Assembly: GCA_965248355.1 (NCBI GenBank)
Contig: OZ252098.1
Location: 3,904,001 to 3,968,000 of the forward strand
Direction of reading: 5' to 3'
DNA length: 64,000 nt
DNA from: Candidatus Latescibacterota bacterium
GTDB lineage: Bacteria > Latescibacterota > UBA2968 > UBA8231
Shown here: one piece after another, positions 1 to 57,000 of the stretch
Layout: every line of letters begins with the position of its first letter
How positions within the stretch are numbered: the first letter of the stretch is position 1
Program-made: the position numbers

Positions 1-3000
1 CTCTTCGTGGATGACCACGTCATCGAGGAGCTGGACGGACTTGAGCGGGTCAGCCAGCGGCCCACCAAGCTGGGCCGGCCGGTCCTGGAGGGGACCGAGC
101 CCTGGGAAAAGGCGACCGCCGCCATCATCGGCAATTCCCTGCACTACGACGCTGAAGACGGCCTGTTCAAGGCCTGGTACGACACCGCCGCCGGAGTCGC
201 CTATGCCACGTCGCGGGACGGTCTCCAGTGGGACAAGCCGAGGCTCGGGATTCTCGAGCATGATGGATCCACGGCCAACAACCTGGTGAGCCCCGGCCGG
301 AACTTCAGCGTCGTCAAGGACCCGCGGGCCGATGACCCGGCGCAGCTGTACAAGGCCATGTACTGGCACTCCCGCAGGGACCCCGATGCGCCGTGGGGCG
401 GCAAAGGCCACTTCGTGGCCTGTTCCCCCGATGGCGTGCACTGGACTCCGGAAACGCGGAATCCCGTCATCGACTTTCGCAACGGCCTGACGGACGGCCA
501 GTTCGTCCTGGGCTGGGATCCTGCCCACGGCAAGTAAGTGGCTTACATGCGGCCCAACGTCTACTTCTTCGATCCCAAGAAGAGGACTTCGGCCTGGGTC
601 GCAAGCGACGACTTCATCAACTGGGGCCCGCCGGTCCTGGCGGTTGCGCCCGACGACTCGGACGGGCCCGAGATCGAATACTACCGGATGAGCGTGGCCA
701 GGTACGAGGGCATCTACCTGGGCTTCATCTGGGTCTACCACAACGACGAGGCGGAGTTCGCGGACCAGTCGCGGGACACGGTCCTGGCCGCGAGCCGCGA
801 CGGCATCACCTGGAGCAGGCCCTTCGGGAGCGAGACCTTCCTCGAGACGGGGGCGCCCGGGGACTGGGACTCGCGATGGGCGAGCGTCTGCAACATGATC
901 CCCGTGGGAGATGAGCTGCGGCTCTACTACTCCGGCGCCAACATACCCCACAACGTCCTGGCCGAGGGCGGGGGCCGCGGGTCGGTTCGGGACTGGCCGG
1001 GAAGGGTGATCGACGGCGAGCGCCGGGCCTACGCGGTGGGCCTGGCCAGGCTGCGGCGCGACGGCTTCGCTGCACTCAGAGCGACGGCGGGTGAAGGGAC
1101 GTTGACGACCCGGCCGGTCACCTTCCTCGGCACGACGCTCCACCTGAATGTGGACAGCTCGGGGGGCAGCGTGGAGGTGGAGGTGACGGACGCCGGAGGC
1201 CAACCGCTGGAAGGCTATTCCCGTGCGGACTGCCTGCCCATCTCCACGGACTCGACGGACATGACCGTGAAATGGAGAGGTGAGAAGGACCTCGTACATG
1301 CCACGGACACGGCGTCCGACCTCGGAGGTGACACCCTGGCCTTCAAGTCGCAGCTCAGGAAGCCCGTGCGGCTGAGATTCCATCTCAGGGACGCGAGTCT
1401 GTATTCGTTCCGGGTCTGCTGATGAAGTTCAGCAGGAAACAATTGGAGCAGTACCGCTTGCGCGGCTACGTCATCGTGGACTGCCCCTTCCCCGAGAGTC
1501 TGACCGAGGAATGCATGGCGGCGGTGGAGAGGGTTGCCCGGGACCCCTCGGAGGGACCGGCGGACGGCAGGAAGAGGAATCACTTTCGACTGCGGCCCCA
1601 GGTGGAAGACTCGTACTGGTGCTCCCTCGATCACTCCCTGCCGTTCATGAAGATCATCCTGCACCCCGAAATCATCGAGCTCGCCCGCCAGCTGAACGGA
1701 GAGAGCGATATCTATCTGCGCAACGGCGGGATCAACGAGCAGGCGCCGGACCGATCGGTGGGGTGGCACATCGACGGCGGGCCCGAGTGGGCGGAGTTCA
1801 TGCACTACTTCTCCGGGGCTTCGCGGGAGAACGGGTGTCTGCGCATCGTGCCGGGCAGTCACAGGGGGCCGCCCACCGCTCTCGAGGAGAAGGCGGCCCG
1901 CCTCAGAGATGAACGTGGCATTCCCGGCTCCCAGGCCGATGACGGCTGGGAGGATGTCCCCCTCGACGAAGAGATCTCCCTGGAGGTGGAGCCCCACCAG
2001 TTGGTCGTGCGCCACTCGAGACTGTTTCACTCGACCTGGCTCAACCGGACGGATGACGGCCGGTACATGAGTCACTGGCTGTTCCACCCCCACACGATCG
2101 ACAACCATCGCTTCACCTGGGGGGACTACCTGACCCCGGAGCTGCTCGATGCGCTGAGTCCCGAGCAGCGGGAGGTGCTGTGGCTGGAGCGGGACTTCGC
2201 CATCGATCCCGCGTACGACCGCGAGCGGTCGCGCGAGTTGGGCCGGGTGACGTGGGGCATGAGATGACGCCCTGGGAAGAGAACATTCAGCAGGCGAGGG
2301 CGGTGGCGCTCGAGATCCTGAAACCGGCGCCCGAGCAGTTGGAGCGCGGGCTGGCCCTGCACCGGGATGCCATCGTGTGCGAGTCGTACAGCCTCGGGCT
2401 GCAGGCGCCGGTCGACGGCGAGGCCGTGGCGCAGGCCGTGGAGTCGGGGGCGTCGGAGGTCGAGCTGCAGTACCTGTCGGAGCAGATGCGGATGACGCGC
2501 TGGGCCTGCGACGACGAGCTGAAGGCCGAGTACCTGGGGGCCTGGGAGGCGTCCGGGGTGACCTGCGCCTTCCAGAACACCGGCGAAGAGGGCAACGACC
2601 CCATGCGCATGCTGGGGCGGCTGGCGCACTACACCCATCTGACGGACCGCATGCGCGACCACGTGGCCCGCGCCCCCTTCCCCGACGACATCGTCGCCGC
2701 CAAGACGGCCGGCCGGCACTGCATCTATCAGACCTGCAACGGCGTGCCTCTCCCCGGCGAGCAGGCCACGGTGGAGCAGGAGCTGCGCTTCATCAGCCTG
2801 CTCTTCGAGCTCGGCTGCCGCATGATGCACCTGACCTACAACCGCCGCAATCCGATCGGCGACGGCTGTGCCGAGCCGGCCAACGCCGGTCTGAGCGAGT
2901 TCGGCCGCGCCGTGATCGCCGAGATGAACAAGGTCGGCGTGATCATCGACGTGGCCCACTCCGGCTGGCGGACCTGCCTGGAGGCGGCCGAGGCGTCGGC

Positions 3001-54000: not shown

Positions 54001-57000
54001 GTGGGGGTAGAACAGCAGCGGTCCGGTCTCGACCCATTCGTAGCGGTGGCGCTCGCGGTTGTAGCGATGGCGCACGGCGGCCACGCGGTTGCCGCCGAAG
54101 TGGCCGGGCTCCGACCACCCGAACTGGCAGGTGTCGAGCCACTCGTCGGCGGCGCCGGTGAGGGGCACCGGGTTGACGAGGCCGTGGTTGATGTCGCCCG
54201 GATCCTCGACACTGCAGCGGTAGGGGCCGGTCTCGTAGCCGACCTGGCGCAGCTCGGTTGCCGGCTGGAGGACCTCGATGTCGTCGTCGGTGTCGTTCAG
54301 GCGGAACTGGACCGCCGGCACGTGCAGGGTCCGCCGCATCAGCTCGTGCGTCTCGATCCCCTTGTAGAGGGTGCCGTCCTCGCGGTAGGCGCGGGCGTTG
54401 CGGTACCACTTGGCGACGAAGAGGTTGGCGTGGGCCGGCACGACGCCCCGGATGCGGGCGCCCTTGGGCACGCCGAAGACGGAGGGCGCGCCATTGGTCT
54501 GGAAGTAGGCCCCGCCGTCGCCGGGGTTCCAGTCGGGGAGGGTGGCGGCGAGCATCCCCTCCTTCAGCACCGGACCGAGGTAGCTGCCGGCGCGGACCTG
54601 GTAGACGATGCTGCGGTCCTCGTCGATGCCGCGCCAGCCGCGGGTGGCGTAGAGGATGAGGAAGCGGTCCCTGCTGAGCTGCGCGCCGTTCGGGTGGGCC
54701 GGGAAGACGTCGTCGCTGCGCCGCTCGCCTTCGAGGCCGCACTCCTGCAGGAATACGCCGTTCGGTTGGATCGACGCCCCGCCGGGCGATGGGCGCCTCA
54801 CGCGTGGCCGGCCCCCGCCTCCCACTCCTCCCGGAGGATGGCGAGGCCGTACTGATCGTGCCACTCCCCGTCGAAGAAGACGGTCTCCCTGAAGAAGGCC
54901 TCCCGCTGCATTCCCAGGCGCTCCGCCATGAGGAGCGAGCGGGTGTTCTCACCGTCGCAGTGGGCGGTGATCCGGTGCAGGTCGAGGGTGGTGAAGGCGA
55001 ACTCCAGCATCGCCCGGCTGGCCTCGGTGGCCAGGCCCTGGCCGCGGCAGCCGGCGTGGAGGAACCACCCCATGTCCCCCTGGCCGTGCGCCCGGCTGGT
55101 CACCTTGATGCAGGTGGTGCCGATCACCCGGCCCGTCGCCTTGTGCTCGACGGCCAGGTGCAGGTAGACGCCCTCGGCGTCGAGGGGCAGATCCCGGGAG
55201 GTGGCGATGAACTTCCTCGCCTCTTCTTCCGTGTAGGGCTCCCGGCTCAGGTACTGTGTGTGCCCGGGCTGGGACTCGCAGTCGAGATATTCCGCCAGGT
55301 CCTCGTCCCGCATCCGGCGCAGGATCAGCCGTTCCGTCTCGATGCGGATCTCGGACACGGCGGCCCGAAGGTCAGTCGAAGAGGGAGGGGAAGTAGCGGT
55401 GCGGGTCGGCGGCGTCGCGGAACAGGATCTGCTGGCGCGGGGTCAGCTCGATCCCCTCGGGAGGCTGCATGCGATGGGCCGACCAGGCGATCTGGGAGAC
55501 ACAGTACTTGAAGAGCAGGCAGCGCCGCTCGTGGGGTGCCCTCCAGGCCGCGGTGCCGTGGGTGATGGCCTCGGTGAAGAGGGTCACGGAGCCGGCCGGC
55601 GCCCGGGGCAGGATGACGCACTCGGAGTCCTCGTGGGCCTCCTCCATGTGCTCCGGGATGCGGAAGACGGACTTGTGGGAGCCGGGGATGCAGCAGAAGC
55701 CGCCGTGGCCGGGGCCGGCGTCGGTGAGGTTCCAGGAGACGACGACGAACCCGGTGTGCAGGACGTTCTCCGGGAAGTGGTAGCGCTCGCCCGGGACCGA
55801 GGGGGCGCCGATGGCCGAGGCGCCGTAGTCGGAGTGCAGGTAGCCGCGGGGCGCGCCCTGCCTCGTGCGGATGCCGTAGATGCGGTCCAGCCGGAAGCAG
55901 TCCCCCAGGCGGAACCGCAGGATGGGCAGCAGGCGCTCGTGGTCGAGGAGGTCGCAGAAGGGCGGCCCCCACTGCAGGAACCCGGGGCCTTCGGGCGAGG
56001 ACCCGCAGGCGTCGCCGAAGCGCTGGATGCCCTCCTTGTCGGGGAGGTCCTGCGCGTCGATCAGCGCGTTGAGCGCCGCCACCGCCCCGGCGTCGAGGAC
56101 GTCCTCGACGACCAGGTAGCCCTGCAGGTCGAAGAGGTACTGCTGGCTCTCGAGATCATACTTCATTGCGAGCTCCTCGAAGTCGGACGAAACCCGCCGC
56201 CGCCCGGCGCCAGCGGGAGGCCTCCCCGTCGCGGGCGCCTTCCCTCAACGAGAGGCCCCTCACCAGCGGACCGTCCGCCGGCCGCCGCCGGGTCCCGCCT
56301 TGAGGATCGCCTCGGCCACGGCCACCGCCTTGATCGCCTCGGTCCCCGGGGTGCGGCACTCGGCCCGGCCGCGGACGCAGTCCAGGAAGTGCCGCGCCTG
56401 GCGCTTGTACATCTGGTTGAAGTCCGCCGGGGCCCGCAGCTGGATCTGGCGGCCGTTCGTCCGGGTGATGCAGAAGTAGGCGTGCTTGCCCTGATCGTCG
56501 GCCGGGGGGCCCTGCGGCCCGGGGCCGAACTCCAGGCCGCCCTTGGGGCCGATGACGTCGTGCAGGCTCTTGCCGCGGGTGCCCCAGGACCAGGAGACCA
56601 GCAACTGATTGCCGCCGGCGTAGCGGACCACGGCCGAGCCCGTGTCGATGGCGGTGACCTCGGGGTTCACCTTGAGCGTGCTCGACACCACGCTCTCGGG
56701 GTCGCCGAAGATCATGTTGGCGAAGTCGTAGTTGTGCACGGCCCCGTCGATGAGGGGGCCGCCGCCGAGCTCCTCGTCCATGAACCAGCGGCCCGGGCCC
56801 AGGCCCGCCGAGCAGTCCCGCCACAGCACCGGGAAGCCGAGACGGCCGGCCTGCACCGCCCGGCCCCAGGTCCCCCAGTGGGCGTCGTAGCGCCGGCATT
56901 GGGCGATCATGAGCAGGGTGCCCGTCTTCGCGCTGACCCGGTTCAGGGCGCGGCACTGGGCGACGGTGCGGGCCATCGGTTTCTCCACAAGCACCGGCAC

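Follow-up and report, generated by a model that had tools for sequence, protein, structure and literature searches.

PhyH genes and their neighbours in the window

The window, that is, the whole stretch of 64,000 nucleotides that was analysed, holds six PhyH-family (PF05721) genes (Table 1), which together with three more upstream, at contig positions 3888276, 3891356 and 3892272, make up the nine that the survey's finding had placed in this region. Among their neighbours in the window are M19 dipeptidase, GNAT, BNR, sulfatase, GFO/IDH/MocA and DAO genes. Ankyrin, WD40 and HEAT repeat proteins are also encoded here.

Table 1. PhyH genes and other annotated features of the window (positions within the window)
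Feature	Position	Strand	Description
PhyH gene	1422-2267	+	281 aa; PF05721 54.7 bits; canonical H-x-D...H...R
M19 dipeptidase gene	2252-3544	+	Peptidase_M19 199.6 bits
GNAT acetyltransferase gene	3544-4551	+	Acetyltransf_1 35.6 bits
PhyH-HEAT fusion	4544-5983	+	479 aa; PF05721 45.8 bits; HEAT_2 87 bits
BNR_2 (sialidase-like propeller) gene	7595-8785	+	47.9 bits; same run as enolase-PhyH
Enolase-superfamily gene	8782-9897	+	MR_MLE_C 212.6 bits; acid-sugar-dehydratase-like; operon partner of PhyH 9890
PhyH gene	9890-10717	+	275 aa; PF05721 55.5 bits; canonical H-I-D
Sulfatase gene, choline-sulfatase-like	13390-14844	-	PF00884 155.5 bits
Enolase-superfamily gene	22264-23292	+	MR_MLE_C 121.9 bits
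PhyH gene, HygX-type clade	36022-36900	+	292 aa; PF05721 59.3 bits
EutQ-like cupin gene	36913-37251		after PhyH gene 36022-36900
PhyH gene, HygX-type clade	40729-41610	+	293 aa; PF05721 27.5 bits (weak)
FAD amine-oxidase-like gene	41618-42730		after PhyH gene 40729-41610
Enolase-superfamily gene	48287-49489	-	MR_MLE_C 152.3 bits
GNAT gene	54798-55358	-	downstream of PhyH 55372-56166
PhyH gene	55372-56166	-	264 aa; PF05721 51.2 bits
GFO/IDH/MocA gene	56260-57261	-	upstream of PhyH 55372-56166
Enolase-superfamily gene	57309-58556	+	MR_MLE_C 131 bits; divergent from GFO-PhyH-GNAT run

The first PhyH gene (1422-2267) overlaps or abuts its neighbours within one co-directional run, in which the M19 and GNAT genes (2252-4551) are flanked by two PhyH genes. 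It is patchy in the class: at E <= 1e-60, 4 of 30 other class genomes have an orthologue, and the two genomes of its own genus have none. The fusion protein (4544-5983) carries its PhyH domain (H-Q-D) at the N-terminus and the HEAT repeats at the C-terminus; 954 proteins match it at E <= 1e-10, the best 120 of which all combine PF05721 with HEAT, and some of these 120 are named Poribacteria (55-58% identity). The PhyH gene at 9890-10717 shares its first 8 bp with the end of the upstream enolase-superfamily gene. Its related loci (n = 38) show 58-91% identity; the BNR_2 gene adjoins the enolase-PhyH pair, in the same order, only in the three closest of them, and a fourth, truncated locus retains enolase-PhyH. 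The top PDB sequence match of this PhyH protein is DhiD (8ZYB, E 0.004), and its enolase-superfamily partner comes closest to the NCBIfam models for L-talarate/galactarate dehydratase (252 bits) and arabinonate dehydratase (246 bits) but stays under the cut-offs of both. None of the other three enolase-superfamily genes of the window reached an NCBIfam equivalog cut-off, and the sulfatase scored 309.9 bits against TIGR03417, below the cut-off of 433.

The remaining three PhyH genes belong to a clade that we call HygX-type. In 36022-36900 (alternative start, 35812) H-N-G replaces H-x-D and an E-x3-H precedes the distal His; 40729-41610 (alternative start, 40462) has the motif H-G-S...E-x3-H; and 55372-56166 sits in the clade yet retains H-S-D plus E-x3-H. 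HygX itself is described as an orthoester-forming Fe/2OG oxygenase of hygromycin B biosynthesis (PDB 4XC9/4XCA/4XCB/4ZPI; review PMC13374393). It is the top PDB sequence match of 40729-41610 (E 5e-4), and when the AF2 model of this protein (pLDDT 86, pTM 0.85) was compared with the PDB by Foldseek, HygX chains took all ten top places, although the identity over the fold alignment is only 15-18%. Across 57 homologues H136, H218 and R229 never vary and E214 is retained in at least 90%, and orthologues with 79-90% identity occur in 8 of 14 same-family genomes. Unlike HygX, the window genes lie in no orthosomycin or aminoglycoside cluster, their neighbours being an FAD oxidase, a cupin and a GNAT gene, and the HygX lysine pointed out in that review (PMC13374393) falls in an insertion relative to 40729-41610 in the HMMER alignment.

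Size, integrity and age of the PhyH family

A six-frame Pfam search of the 5.5-Mb genome, with 136 of 136 first-look candidates scored, gave 121 PF05721 matches above the curated cut-off of 22 bits; because two of them share one gene, they represent 120 genes, in agreement with the approximately 120 reported by the survey. The encoded proteins have a median length of 276 aa (range 157-716) and form the largest paralogue family of the genome, about 2.7% of 4465 gene calls, which, like their start sites, are crude; the survey had put the share at 2.5% of ORFs. For the enolase superfamily (about 64 claimed) we obtained 65 PF13378 matches in about 60 genes; the 91 GFO/IDH/MocA genes compare with 103 first-look candidates, none of which passed the overly strict threshold applied, and 77 members of the BLAST family; and the 35 sulfatases equal the number of first-look candidates, but the BLAST family has only 27.

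When the 120 genes were aligned with MAFFT, 119 proved to keep the distal His, 118 the Arg that binds 2-oxoglutarate and 116 the proximal His. H-x-D/E occurs in 92; the acid at +2 is missing from the other 28, and 17 of these 28 carry a relocated E/D-x3-H. An H-x-G...E-x3-H metal site with relocated carboxylate, as in HygX, characterizes 17 copies inside a clade of 24. A TM-like 19-mer was found in none of the 120 proteins and an N-terminal hydrophobic 12-mer in one. The copies are old and strongly diverged from each other (nearest-paralogue identity, median 37.7%, maximum 68%; 119 clusters at 60% identity), orthologues in kin are 58-91% identical, PhyH codon usage equals that of the genome, and none of the 120 proteins reached an NCBIfam equivalog cut-off. 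Five PhyH-HEAT fusions occur in the genome.

It is scarcely conceivable that false positives, pseudogenes or assembly artefacts have raised this count. Two copies are indeed short fragments (157 and 159 aa, the former with a TGA within its match), a further copy has neither the proximal His nor the Arg, and the contamination estimate of the genome is 4.18%. Nevertheless, all 121 matches exceed the Pfam cut-off while none of 14 control genomes has a match, the assembly is a single contig, low GC3 marks just 3 of 120 copies, and kin genomes have similar numbers; cut-off, kin counts, residues and codon usage largely refute this explanation already. The same cut-off, and the catalytic residues kept in 116-119 of the 120 copies, dispel the worry that distant cupin-like relatives had been counted.

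Distribution and gene neighbourhood

As the survey had claimed, the expansion extends through almost the entire class: in 59 of 61 sampled genomes, this one included, 37 or more of the 40 candidates scored were matches, and each of the 59 has 48-334 first-look candidates, which are not copy numbers. The exception, one genus represented by two genomes (90% and 86% complete), was likewise borne out, with 3-4 candidates and no PF05721 match. Outside the class, 36 sampled genomes of the phylum comprise 5 with 30-62 candidates and 31 with 0-7. Large sets occur in other lineages as well, i.e., 67 matches in a Poribacteria MAG (4.4 Mb), at least 150 in a Spirochaetia-labelled MAG of 7.0 Mb, 229 candidates in another of 8.0 Mb and 82 matches in a Chthonomonadaceae MAG (6.5 Mb), and orthologues of one paralogue were found in Planctomycetota, Chloroflexota, Verrucomicrobiota and Armatimonadota MAGs. 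For 19 of 21 sampled Poribacteria genes the sister clade came solely from other genomes, and small supported clades with Poribacteria genes often contain the genome studied here. Many PhyH subfamilies are shared among this genome and the Poribacteria, Spirochaetia-labelled and Chthonomonadaceae MAGs; the paralogues are no lineage-specific burst.

The uniqueness that the survey implied does not stand, given these comparable numbers in other phylum-level groups, the shared subfamilies and a published precedent. In Poribacteria, PhyH (pfam05721) is given as the most abundant Pfam family, with more than 1.9% of genes, and 305 sequences fell into 193 clusters at 60% identity (Kamke et al. 2014, PLoS One, PMC3909097). 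By this account the two cases are alike, PhyH being the most abundant domain family, with about 2-3% of genes and very diverse copies (120 in 119 clusters here). They differ in host phylum, the kin of our genome being labelled Candidatus Latescibacterota or Gemmatimonadota, and in the higher PhyH density here, the median in the class being 29.7 first-look candidates per Mb. New here are the statistical enolase-superfamily link, the HygX-type clade and the observation that different phyla have subfamilies in common.

Within three genes on either side of PhyH genes there are 23 enolase-superfamily genes (8.5 expected), and 11 lie in putative PhyH operons (2.8 expected); 0 of 2000 permutations was as high in either case. 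Seven PhyH genes, drawn from different PhyH clades, directly adjoin an enolase gene. Over 91 genomes the candidate counts of the two families correlate (Spearman 0.89; 0.68 within the class), with relatedness overstating the significance. RraA-like genes near PhyH number 3 against 0.39 expected (matched in 9 of 2000 permutations), and apart from these two no neighbour family was significantly enriched, including GFO/IDH/MocA, SDR, AKR, sulfatase and ABC ATPase genes. Singletons account for 110 of 232 PhyH operon partners, and 33 of 115 PhyH genes stand alone. In the genus that lacks PhyH genes, each genome nevertheless has 47 enolase candidates, hence the enolase genes are independent of PhyH. 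In other phyla enolase adjacency was seen in only 3 of 78 sampled loci as a raw count, and in a Spirochaetia-labelled MAG a PhyH orthologue adjoins a sugar-type ABC importer.

Possible roles of the PhyH enzymes

Several roles other than catabolism have to be weighed. A battery that modifies or detoxifies bioactive metabolites made by a host or its community, or mediates symbiosis, with no gain of carbon or energy, would suit the expansion published for sponge-symbiont Poribacteria, the near-identical contigs in an RNA run labelled 'sponge metagenome' and the ankyrin, WD40 and HEAT repeat proteins of the window. This role seems fairly improbable to us: the Chthonomonadaceae MAG and the orthologues in MAGs of four phyla mean that the trait probably tracks more than one habitat, and the enolase-superfamily linkage points to central catabolism. 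It is also unlikely that most copies act on macromolecules or their fragments (proteins, RNA, nucleosides), for instance by demethylating 2'-O-methyl nucleosides or hydroxylating proteins, the HEAT repeats then serving for docking. PHYHD1 is reported to demethylate 2'-O-methyl nucleosides, as are bacterial members of PF05721, one of which comes from Poribacteria, and the close relatives named for FJS include Gemmatimonadota and Poribacteria (Nucleic Acids Res 2025, PMC12709175). Our top-scoring paralogue (contig 5332422-5333276), also a PF05721 member, has PHYHD1 as its best PDB match (E 5e-21), and the five HEAT fusions would agree with docking; however, such a domain is absent from 115 of 120 copies, 119 clusters far exceed the specificities needed for known nucleoside substrates, and the neighbours are small-molecule enzymes. 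The top-scoring paralogue itself is adjoined by enolase-superfamily, isocitrate/isopropylmalate-dehydrogenase-family and S58 peptidase genes and by no nucleoside genes, and the PHYHD1/FJS activity is possible for no more than one or a few copies out of 120.

Secondary-metabolite tailoring by enzymes like HygX, EvdO1/2, SnoK/SnoN, PtlH or SyrB2-type halogenases, with natural products as the outcome, is suggested by the many biosynthetic enzymes among the top solved relatives (SnoK, EvdO, HygX, SptF, PrhA), by the acid missing at +2 from 28 copies, as in halogenases, and by weak matches (up to 97 bits) to the 'chlorinating enzyme' model TIGR01762. We consider it distinctly unlikely, as the TIGR01762 cut-off of 226 bits is far above those scores and H-x-D is retained by the three tested copies that score highest; the HygX-like E/D-x3-H of 17 of the 28 acid-less copies means that these are no halide sites. 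Moreover, a PKS/NRPS scan restricted to PP-binding gave four matches in the genome, the closest PhyH gene being 10.8 kb off, and the 120 genes are scattered, their sole enriched neighbours being primary-metabolism families. That the copies mainly serve in the use of phosphonates (PhnY/PhnZ type) or in osmolyte chemistry (ectoine hydroxylase), the sole functions put forward for the Poribacteria copies in 2014 (PMC3909097), is very improbable; these functions and could account for only a handful of genes. An HD-domain gene (contig 3229756-3230082) does precede a PhyH gene (3230241-3230993) by 159 bp in the same orientation, an arrangement like that of PhnZ/PhnY, but KanJ is the best PDB match of that PhyH gene and co-directional PhyH adjacency was seen in just 1 of 13 HD matches; the weak matches to methylphosphonate hydroxylase and ectoine hydroxylase models are far under the cut-offs (at most 59 bits versus 500 and at most 74 versus 336.5).

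SAR202 Chloroflexota are said to oxidise recalcitrant dissolved organic matter by means of paralogue expansions, the expanded families reportedly being flavin monooxygenases and others. The idea is similar here, a heterotroph multiplying oxidative enzyme families against chemically diverse organic matter. In the accessible text on SAR202, phytanoyl-CoA dioxygenase is mentioned once, as an alpha-oxidation gene and not as an expanded family (Landry et al. 2017, PMC5395668).

That the genes belong to the PhyH family, that their metal and 2-oxoglutarate sites are intact, how old and diverse the copies are, how they are distributed and that they are linked to enolase-superfamily genes are direct observations, from which we infer a catabolic role, substrate classes and reaction types. 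With a probability of roughly 55%, the PhyH set of this genome is a cytoplasmic catabolic toolkit of substrate-specific oxygenases. Sugar moieties are frequent targets of the nearest solved relatives of the paralogues that were tested (PHYHD1, SnoK, EvdO1/2, KanJ, HygX); against the catabolic reading, several close ones are biosynthetic tailoring enzymes. About 115-118 of these Fe(II)/2-oxoglutarate-dependent PhyH oxygenases are intact, soluble and cytoplasmic, each an old, separately evolving subfamily. Using O2 and 2-oxoglutarate, each enzyme may act on one kind of small polar molecule taken up from outside, probably sugars, sugar acids, amino sugars, nucleosides or amino-acid derivatives, by hydroxylation, O- or N-demethylation or oxidative deamination, and the products would enter ordinary dehydratase, dehydrogenase and aldolase routes, above all enolase-superfamily-based ones. 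Such a repertoire would have been assembled from subfamilies also found in other glycan-degrading phyla and kept by selection, with some members probably core to the family and others patchy.

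Copy number and gene content

The source genome (G000, a Candidatus Latescibacterota bacterium of class UBA2968) is a single contig of 5,503,661 bp with 68.9% G+C. A six-frame Pfam search of the whole genome, in which all 136 of 136 first-look candidates (preliminary search matches) were scored, returned 121 PF05721 (PhyH) matches over the curated cut-off of 22 bits, while none of 14 well-known control genomes gave a match. Placed on open frames by a custom gene caller built on codon usage (4465 gene calls), these matches correspond to 120 distinct PhyH genes with a median length of 276 aa, or 2.7% of the gene calls. 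The genome-wide expansion, which the survey's finding had put at about 121 genes, is thus confirmed at about 120, and its count of nine between contig positions 3888276 and 3960166 is correct as well, because six PhyH genes lie in the window, all six over the PF05721 cut-off when their translations were searched, and three further ones lie just upstream. BLAST single-linkage clustering of all gene calls places PhyH first in size among the paralogue families of the genome, followed by GFO/IDH/MocA (77), the enolase superfamily (60), ABC ATPases (55), Mutator-type transposases (35), SDRs (34) and sulfatases (27). The Pfam search gave 65 matches for the enolase C-terminal domain, and there were 103 first-look candidates for PF01408 and 35 for PF00884, which count candidates only and not confirmed matches.

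Coordinates of PhyH genes and other features in the window and elsewhere on the contig
Feature	Numbering	Position	Strand	Basis or remark
PhyH gene	window	1422-2267	+	Pfam on protein
PhyH gene (PhyH-HEAT fusion)	window	4544-5983	+	Pfam on protein
PhyH gene	window	9890-10717	+	Pfam on protein
PhyH gene	window	36022-36900	+	Pfam on protein
PhyH gene	window	40729-41610	+	Pfam on protein
PhyH gene	window	55372-56166	-	Pfam on protein
PhyH-HEAT fusion	contig	1997186-1998532
PhyH-HEAT fusion	contig	2241820-2243343
PhyH-HEAT fusion	contig	2746210-2748198
PhyH-HEAT fusion	contig	3418431-3419930
Top-scoring paralogue, PHYHD1-like	contig	5332422-5333276
HD-domain and PhyH gene pair	contig	3229756-3230993
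Acid-sugar-dehydratase-like gene	window	8782-9897		overlaps start of PhyH 9890-10717
Gene at head of PhyH operon	window	538-1422	+	family of 24
Mutator-family transposase gene	window	45001-46230	+	BLAST families
Open frame of 1336 aa	window	46251-50261	-	no Pfam match
Enolase-superfamily gene	window	48287-49489		overlapped by 46251-50261
Gene	window	49486-50397		overlapped by 46251-50261
Defence-type gene(s)	window	50537-52418	-
Defence-type gene(s)	window	62054-64000	-
Defence-type gene(s)	window	30479-31666	-
Defence-type gene(s)	window	38783-39208	-
Repeat/adhesion-type protein(s)	window	19656-21536	-
Repeat/adhesion-type protein(s)	window	39304-40107	+
Repeat/adhesion-type protein(s)	window	23343-29902	-

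Several other features of the window and the genome were recorded. The Mutator-family transposase of the window has 35 copies in G000 and the DDE_3 transposase 27 (BLAST families), and two more large families, one with 29 members (about 639 aa) and one with 27 (about 915 aa), have no Pfam matches. The gene at the head of a PhyH operon (538-1422) has 23 paralogues elsewhere in the genome, and this family matches neither Pfam nor NCBIfam; in the Protein Atlas it falls into unnamed clusters only, mostly of Planctomycetota, with a weak BNR-like lead (0.85). The defence-type set of the window comprises PIN, an AAA_15/AAA_21 ATPase, a BREX BrxL Lon-like protease whose gene extends past the window end, a DUF4143 ATPase and a HicB antitoxin, and some of these genes lie in stretches of lower G+C (62-64%) at about 20-28 kb and 44-52 kb. 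Eukaryote-like proteins of the repeat or adhesion type carry WD40, ankyrin, VIT/VWA, FG-GAP and VWA domains; the VWA protein has a weak Por_Secre_tail match (26.6 bits, under the 27-bit cut-off). The long open frame at 46251-50261 overlaps two genes in another frame, and it is probably, in its upstream part at least, a high-G+C shadow frame.

Integrity, age and distribution of the copies

The PhyH set of G000 is a real, ancient and selectively maintained battery of about 120 predicted oxygenases. In a MAFFT alignment of the PhyH proteins of this genome, the distal His is kept in 119 of 120 and the proximal His in 116, the H-x-D/E motif is present in 92 of 120, and 118 of 120 fill a conserved Arg column, which we take to be the residue binding the C5 carboxylate of 2-oxoglutarate. 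Around 8-11 copies have neither a canonical nor a relocated acid in this alignment, two are short fragments (one with an in-frame TGA inside the match), and one lacks both the proximal His and the Arg. None of the 120 proteins has a TM-like segment and only one has a hydrophobic N-terminus, so that by this crude measure they would be soluble and cytoplasmic. A similarly crude test found an N-terminal hydrophobic segment in only 1 of the 27 sulfatases of the BLAST family, which, start-site calls being uncertain, would mean that these too are mostly cytoplasmic. For the one member examined by modelling (40729-41610), the AlphaFold2 model (pLDDT 86.1) has the double-stranded beta-helix fold, and at least 500 PDB entries match it at E≤0.001, those listed being Fe/2OG oxygenases throughout.

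A recent burst and a recent horizontal acquisition were both rejected as explanations: median identity to the nearest paralogue is only 37.7%, and codon usage and GC3 are those of the genome (GC3 is low in only 3 of 120). The highest identity to a nearest paralogue is 68%, and clustering at 60% identity sorts the 120 genes into 119 clusters. Counterparts in other genomes are much closer: the gene at 9890-10717 has 38 related loci at 58-91% identity, and that at 40729-41610 has orthologues at 79-90% identity in 8 of 14 genomes of the same family. The gene at 1422-2267 is patchy: at E≤1e-60, only 4 of 30 other genomes of the class carry it, and neither same-genus genome does. Together these patterns mark the repertoire as old, part of it a stable core and part a fringe that turns over.

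Of the 61 genomes sampled from the class, 59 gave 37 or more matches when 40 candidates were scored; their first-look candidates number 48-334 each, which are not copy numbers. The other two (G004 and G010, of the same family and another genus, 90% and 86% complete) have 3-4 PhyH candidates, no match and 47 enolase-domain candidates each, which looks like a natural loss of PhyH. Elsewhere in the phylum, 5 of 36 genomes have 30-62 candidates and the remaining 31 have 0-7. Records of close kin are labelled Candidatus Latescibacterota or Gemmatimonadota/Gemmatimonadetes.

The expansion extends beyond this lineage. Among genomes reached through related loci and named here by their record titles, PF05721 matches number 67 in a Poribacteria MAG (4.4 Mb), at least 150 of 198 candidates in a Spirochaetia-labelled MAG (7.0 Mb), 82 in a Chthonomonadaceae MAG (6.5 Mb), 18 in a Phycisphaera MAG (3.5 Mb) and 10 in a Roseilinea MAG (3.9 Mb); a second Spirochaetia-labelled MAG (8.0 Mb) has 229 candidates. 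For comparison of subfamilies we took the best-scoring loci (22 Poribacteria, 30 Chthonomonadaceae and 26 Spirochaetia-labelled), a choice that favours canonical copies with high scores. In these three sets, 14 of 22, 20 of 30 and 22 of 26, respectively, score higher to a G000 gene than that gene's nearest paralogue does, and in a joint FastTree of 194 sequences 19 of 21, 17 of 29 and 22 of 26 have a sister clade drawn solely from other genomes. The same tree holds 18 well-supported small clades with at least three of the four genomes. Orthologues of the top-scoring paralogue, a PHYHD1-like gene, occur at 57-63% identity in MAGs that bear the labels Armatimonadota, Planctomycetota, Chloroflexota, Verrucomicrobiota and Poribacteria. 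Of the loci around these orthologues, 13 from four or more phyla have an AraC-type regulator upstream and 14 have an enolase-superfamily gene close by, and within the paralogue's own family a gene of the isocitrate/isopropylmalate-dehydrogenase family lies upstream. In addition, one RNA run with the label 'sponge metagenome' contains assembled contigs matching window 1400-10800; 18 of 99 match it at 99% identity or more, pieces on two PhyH genes among them, which speaks for presence in an RNA library and not for transcription as such, its level or its strand.

A comparable expansion has been in print since 2014, so that the present case extends a known pattern and opens no new one. Kamke et al. 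2014 (PMC3909097) give PF05721 as the most abundant domain family of Poribacteria (>1.9% of genes; 305 sequences in 193 clusters at 60% identity), with functions unknown bar one PhnY/PhnZ-like pair. With 2.7% of genes and 119 clusters from 120 genes, G000 displays the same kind of expansion, namely about 2% or more of genes at high diversity. At one place outside the window, a PhyH gene of this genome is preceded, at a distance of 159 bp and on the same strand, by an HD-domain gene, a PhnZ/PhnY-like layout such as the 2014 paper proposes for Poribacteria; the best PDB hit of this PhyH gene is KanJ. No report of a PhyH expansion in Latescibacterota/PAUC34f, Planctomycetota or SAR202 was found in the literature searched, no search being aimed at Armatimonadota, and term look-up in the main texts of PMC7081726, PMC12993501, PMC13200403 and PMC5395668 gave none. 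To the known pattern the present analysis adds the enolase linkage, the subfamilies common to several phyla, how large the HygX-type clade is, and the PhyH-HEAT architecture.

That architecture, a PhyH domain followed by C-terminal HEAT repeats, occurs in five genes of G000. The window member has 954 homologues at E≤1e-10, the best 120 of which all share the arrangement, and Poribacteria-named proteins among its homologues reach 55-58% identity. We know of no described function for this fusion.

The HygX-type clade and solved relatives

The acid at position +2 after the proximal His is missing in 28 PhyH copies, 22 of which fall inside one clade of 24 (support 0.84). In 17 of the 28, those at 36022-36900 and 40729-41610 among them, a Glu or Asp stands four residues before the distal His (E/D-x3-H), which gives a site of the H-x-G ... 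E-x3-H type. The review PMC13374393 describes this arrangement for HygX, the orthoester-forming oxygenase of hygromycin B biosynthesis. The gene at 40729-41610 has HygX as its best PDB sequence hit, and the ten best Foldseek PDB matches of its model (pLDDT 86, pTM 0.85) are HygX chains (E 1e-15, TM 0.59-0.74). It has 1748 representative homologues at E≤0.001, and in the 57 of them that were aligned, H136, H218 and R229 never vary and at least 90% keep E214. Unlike HygX, the HygX-type genes of the window adjoin cupin, FAD oxidase and GNAT genes without a glycosyltransferase cluster, and no orthosomycin or aminoglycoside biosynthetic cluster was found among their Pfam-annotated window neighbours. 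Because this context is unlike an orthosomycin cluster, we limit the naming to the metal site: the copies are HygX-like in their predicted metal site, and no HygX function is implied.

Copies lacking the acid might also be read as halogenases of the SyrB2 type, a reading rejected for most of them in view of the HygX-type E/D-x3-H in 17 of 28. Nor is there a carrier protein near the PhyH genes, the genome having only four carrier-protein (PP-binding) domains, the nearest 10.8 kb from a PhyH gene, and scores against TIGR01762 (chlorinating enzyme) stay under the cut-off (97 bits at the top vs 226). Four long copies (509-652 aa) have neither the canonical nor the relocated carboxylate in the alignment and read H-x-G, H-x-G, H-x-Q and A-x-G.

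None of the 120 copies reached an NCBIfam equivalog cut-off, those for the ectoine hydroxylase EctD, the methylphosphonate hydroxylase PhnY*, PtlH and chlorinating enzymes included; 26 copies were scanned at E≤1e-3, with every match under the cut-off, and 94 at E≤1e-25, with a single match, also under it. Best solved relatives were PHYHD1 (E 5e-21), human PhyH and SnoK for the top-scoring paralogue, human PhyH and EctD for another, KanJ for a third and, as a weak match, DhiD for the window gene at 9890-10717. Several of these relatives use sugar moieties as substrates. According to a recent paper (PMC12709175), PHYHD1 and bacterial PF05721 members, one of them from Poribacteria, demethylate 2'-O-methyl nucleosides.

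Gene neighbourhood and possible role

Enrichment of paralogue families around PhyH genes was evaluated by 2000 random draws. Among the three genes to each side, the enolase superfamily is represented 23 times vs 8.5 expected (0 of 2000 draws), AKR, BNR_2, UxuA-like and Amidohydro_2 families show a mild rise only, and GFO/IDH/MocA and ABC ATPases show none. Putative PhyH operons hold 11 enolase-superfamily genes vs 2.8 expected (0 of 2000 draws) and 3 RraA-like genes vs 0.39 (9 of 2000); singletons make up 110 of 232 operon partners, and 33 of 115 PhyH genes stand alone. Seven PhyH genes lie immediately beside an enolase-superfamily gene, six of them co-directionally. Duplication of a single PhyH-enolase module as the source of this linkage was rejected, the seven pairs spanning different PhyH clades. 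Across 91 genomes of the phylum, first-look candidates for PhyH and the enolase domain co-vary (Spearman 0.89 overall, 0.68 within the class, 0.58 for densities per Mb within the class and 0.64 outside it), correlations that overstate the case because of the relatedness of the genomes. In other phyla, an adjacent enolase-superfamily gene turned up at 3 of the 78 loci sampled with flanks of 1.5 kb, a figure with no background for comparison.

By its nearest NCBIfam models, the window gene at 8782-9897 is acid-sugar-dehydratase-like, with scores below the cut-offs. The remaining partners in the window are an M19 dipeptidase, two GNATs, a BNR propeller, an FAD amine-oxidase-like protein, a EutQ-like cupin and a GFO/IDH/MocA dehydrogenase. 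The contexts are thus mixed, sugar-acid-like in part and amine- or peptide-like in part. Orthologues of 9890-10717 have variable neighbours among kin (BNR and enolase, SDR and acyl-CoA synthetase, or a sugar ABC importer); conserved synteny was accordingly rejected as a functional guide for this gene, no single pathway being readable.

Taken as a whole, we consider it somewhat better than even (about 55%) that the PhyH set is a catabolic toolkit of putative substrate-specific oxygenases, readying diverse small organic compounds for enolase-superfamily-based and related pathways. A bolder and rather unlikely proposal is that the joint PhyH and enolase-superfamily expansions reflect an unrecognised O2-dependent feeding on chemically 'masked' carbohydrates and organic acids. 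Under this proposal, the substrates would be compounds such as sugars and sugar acids from marine or host-derived organic matter that carry O-methyl, deoxy, amino or other decorations. The PhyH oxygenases, dozens of them and each substrate-specific, would remove or hydroxylate the decoration and leave the product to acid-sugar dehydratases or epimerases. The toolkit would consist of ancient subfamilies exchanged among unrelated glycan-degrading phyla (the Latescibacterota-labelled class, Poribacteria, Spirochaetia-labelled MAGs and Armatimonadota), and the HygX-type clade would represent a large family of catabolic enzymes, its sole studied member being a biosynthetic one.

The largest gene family of this abundant, uncultured lineage thus consists of more than 100 intact predicted oxygenases without a known substrate, and three or more other phylum-level groups have the same PhyH toolkit. 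Starting points are offered by the tight PhyH-enolase pairs, the PhyH-HEAT fusions, the HygX-type clade and the PHYHD1-like paralogue, which is widely conserved and has an AraC-type regulator. Substrate work on this set may yield many new catalysts for regio-selective C-H oxidation, and identifying the substrates would tell how such bacteria use organic matter beyond the ordinary hydrolytic pathways.
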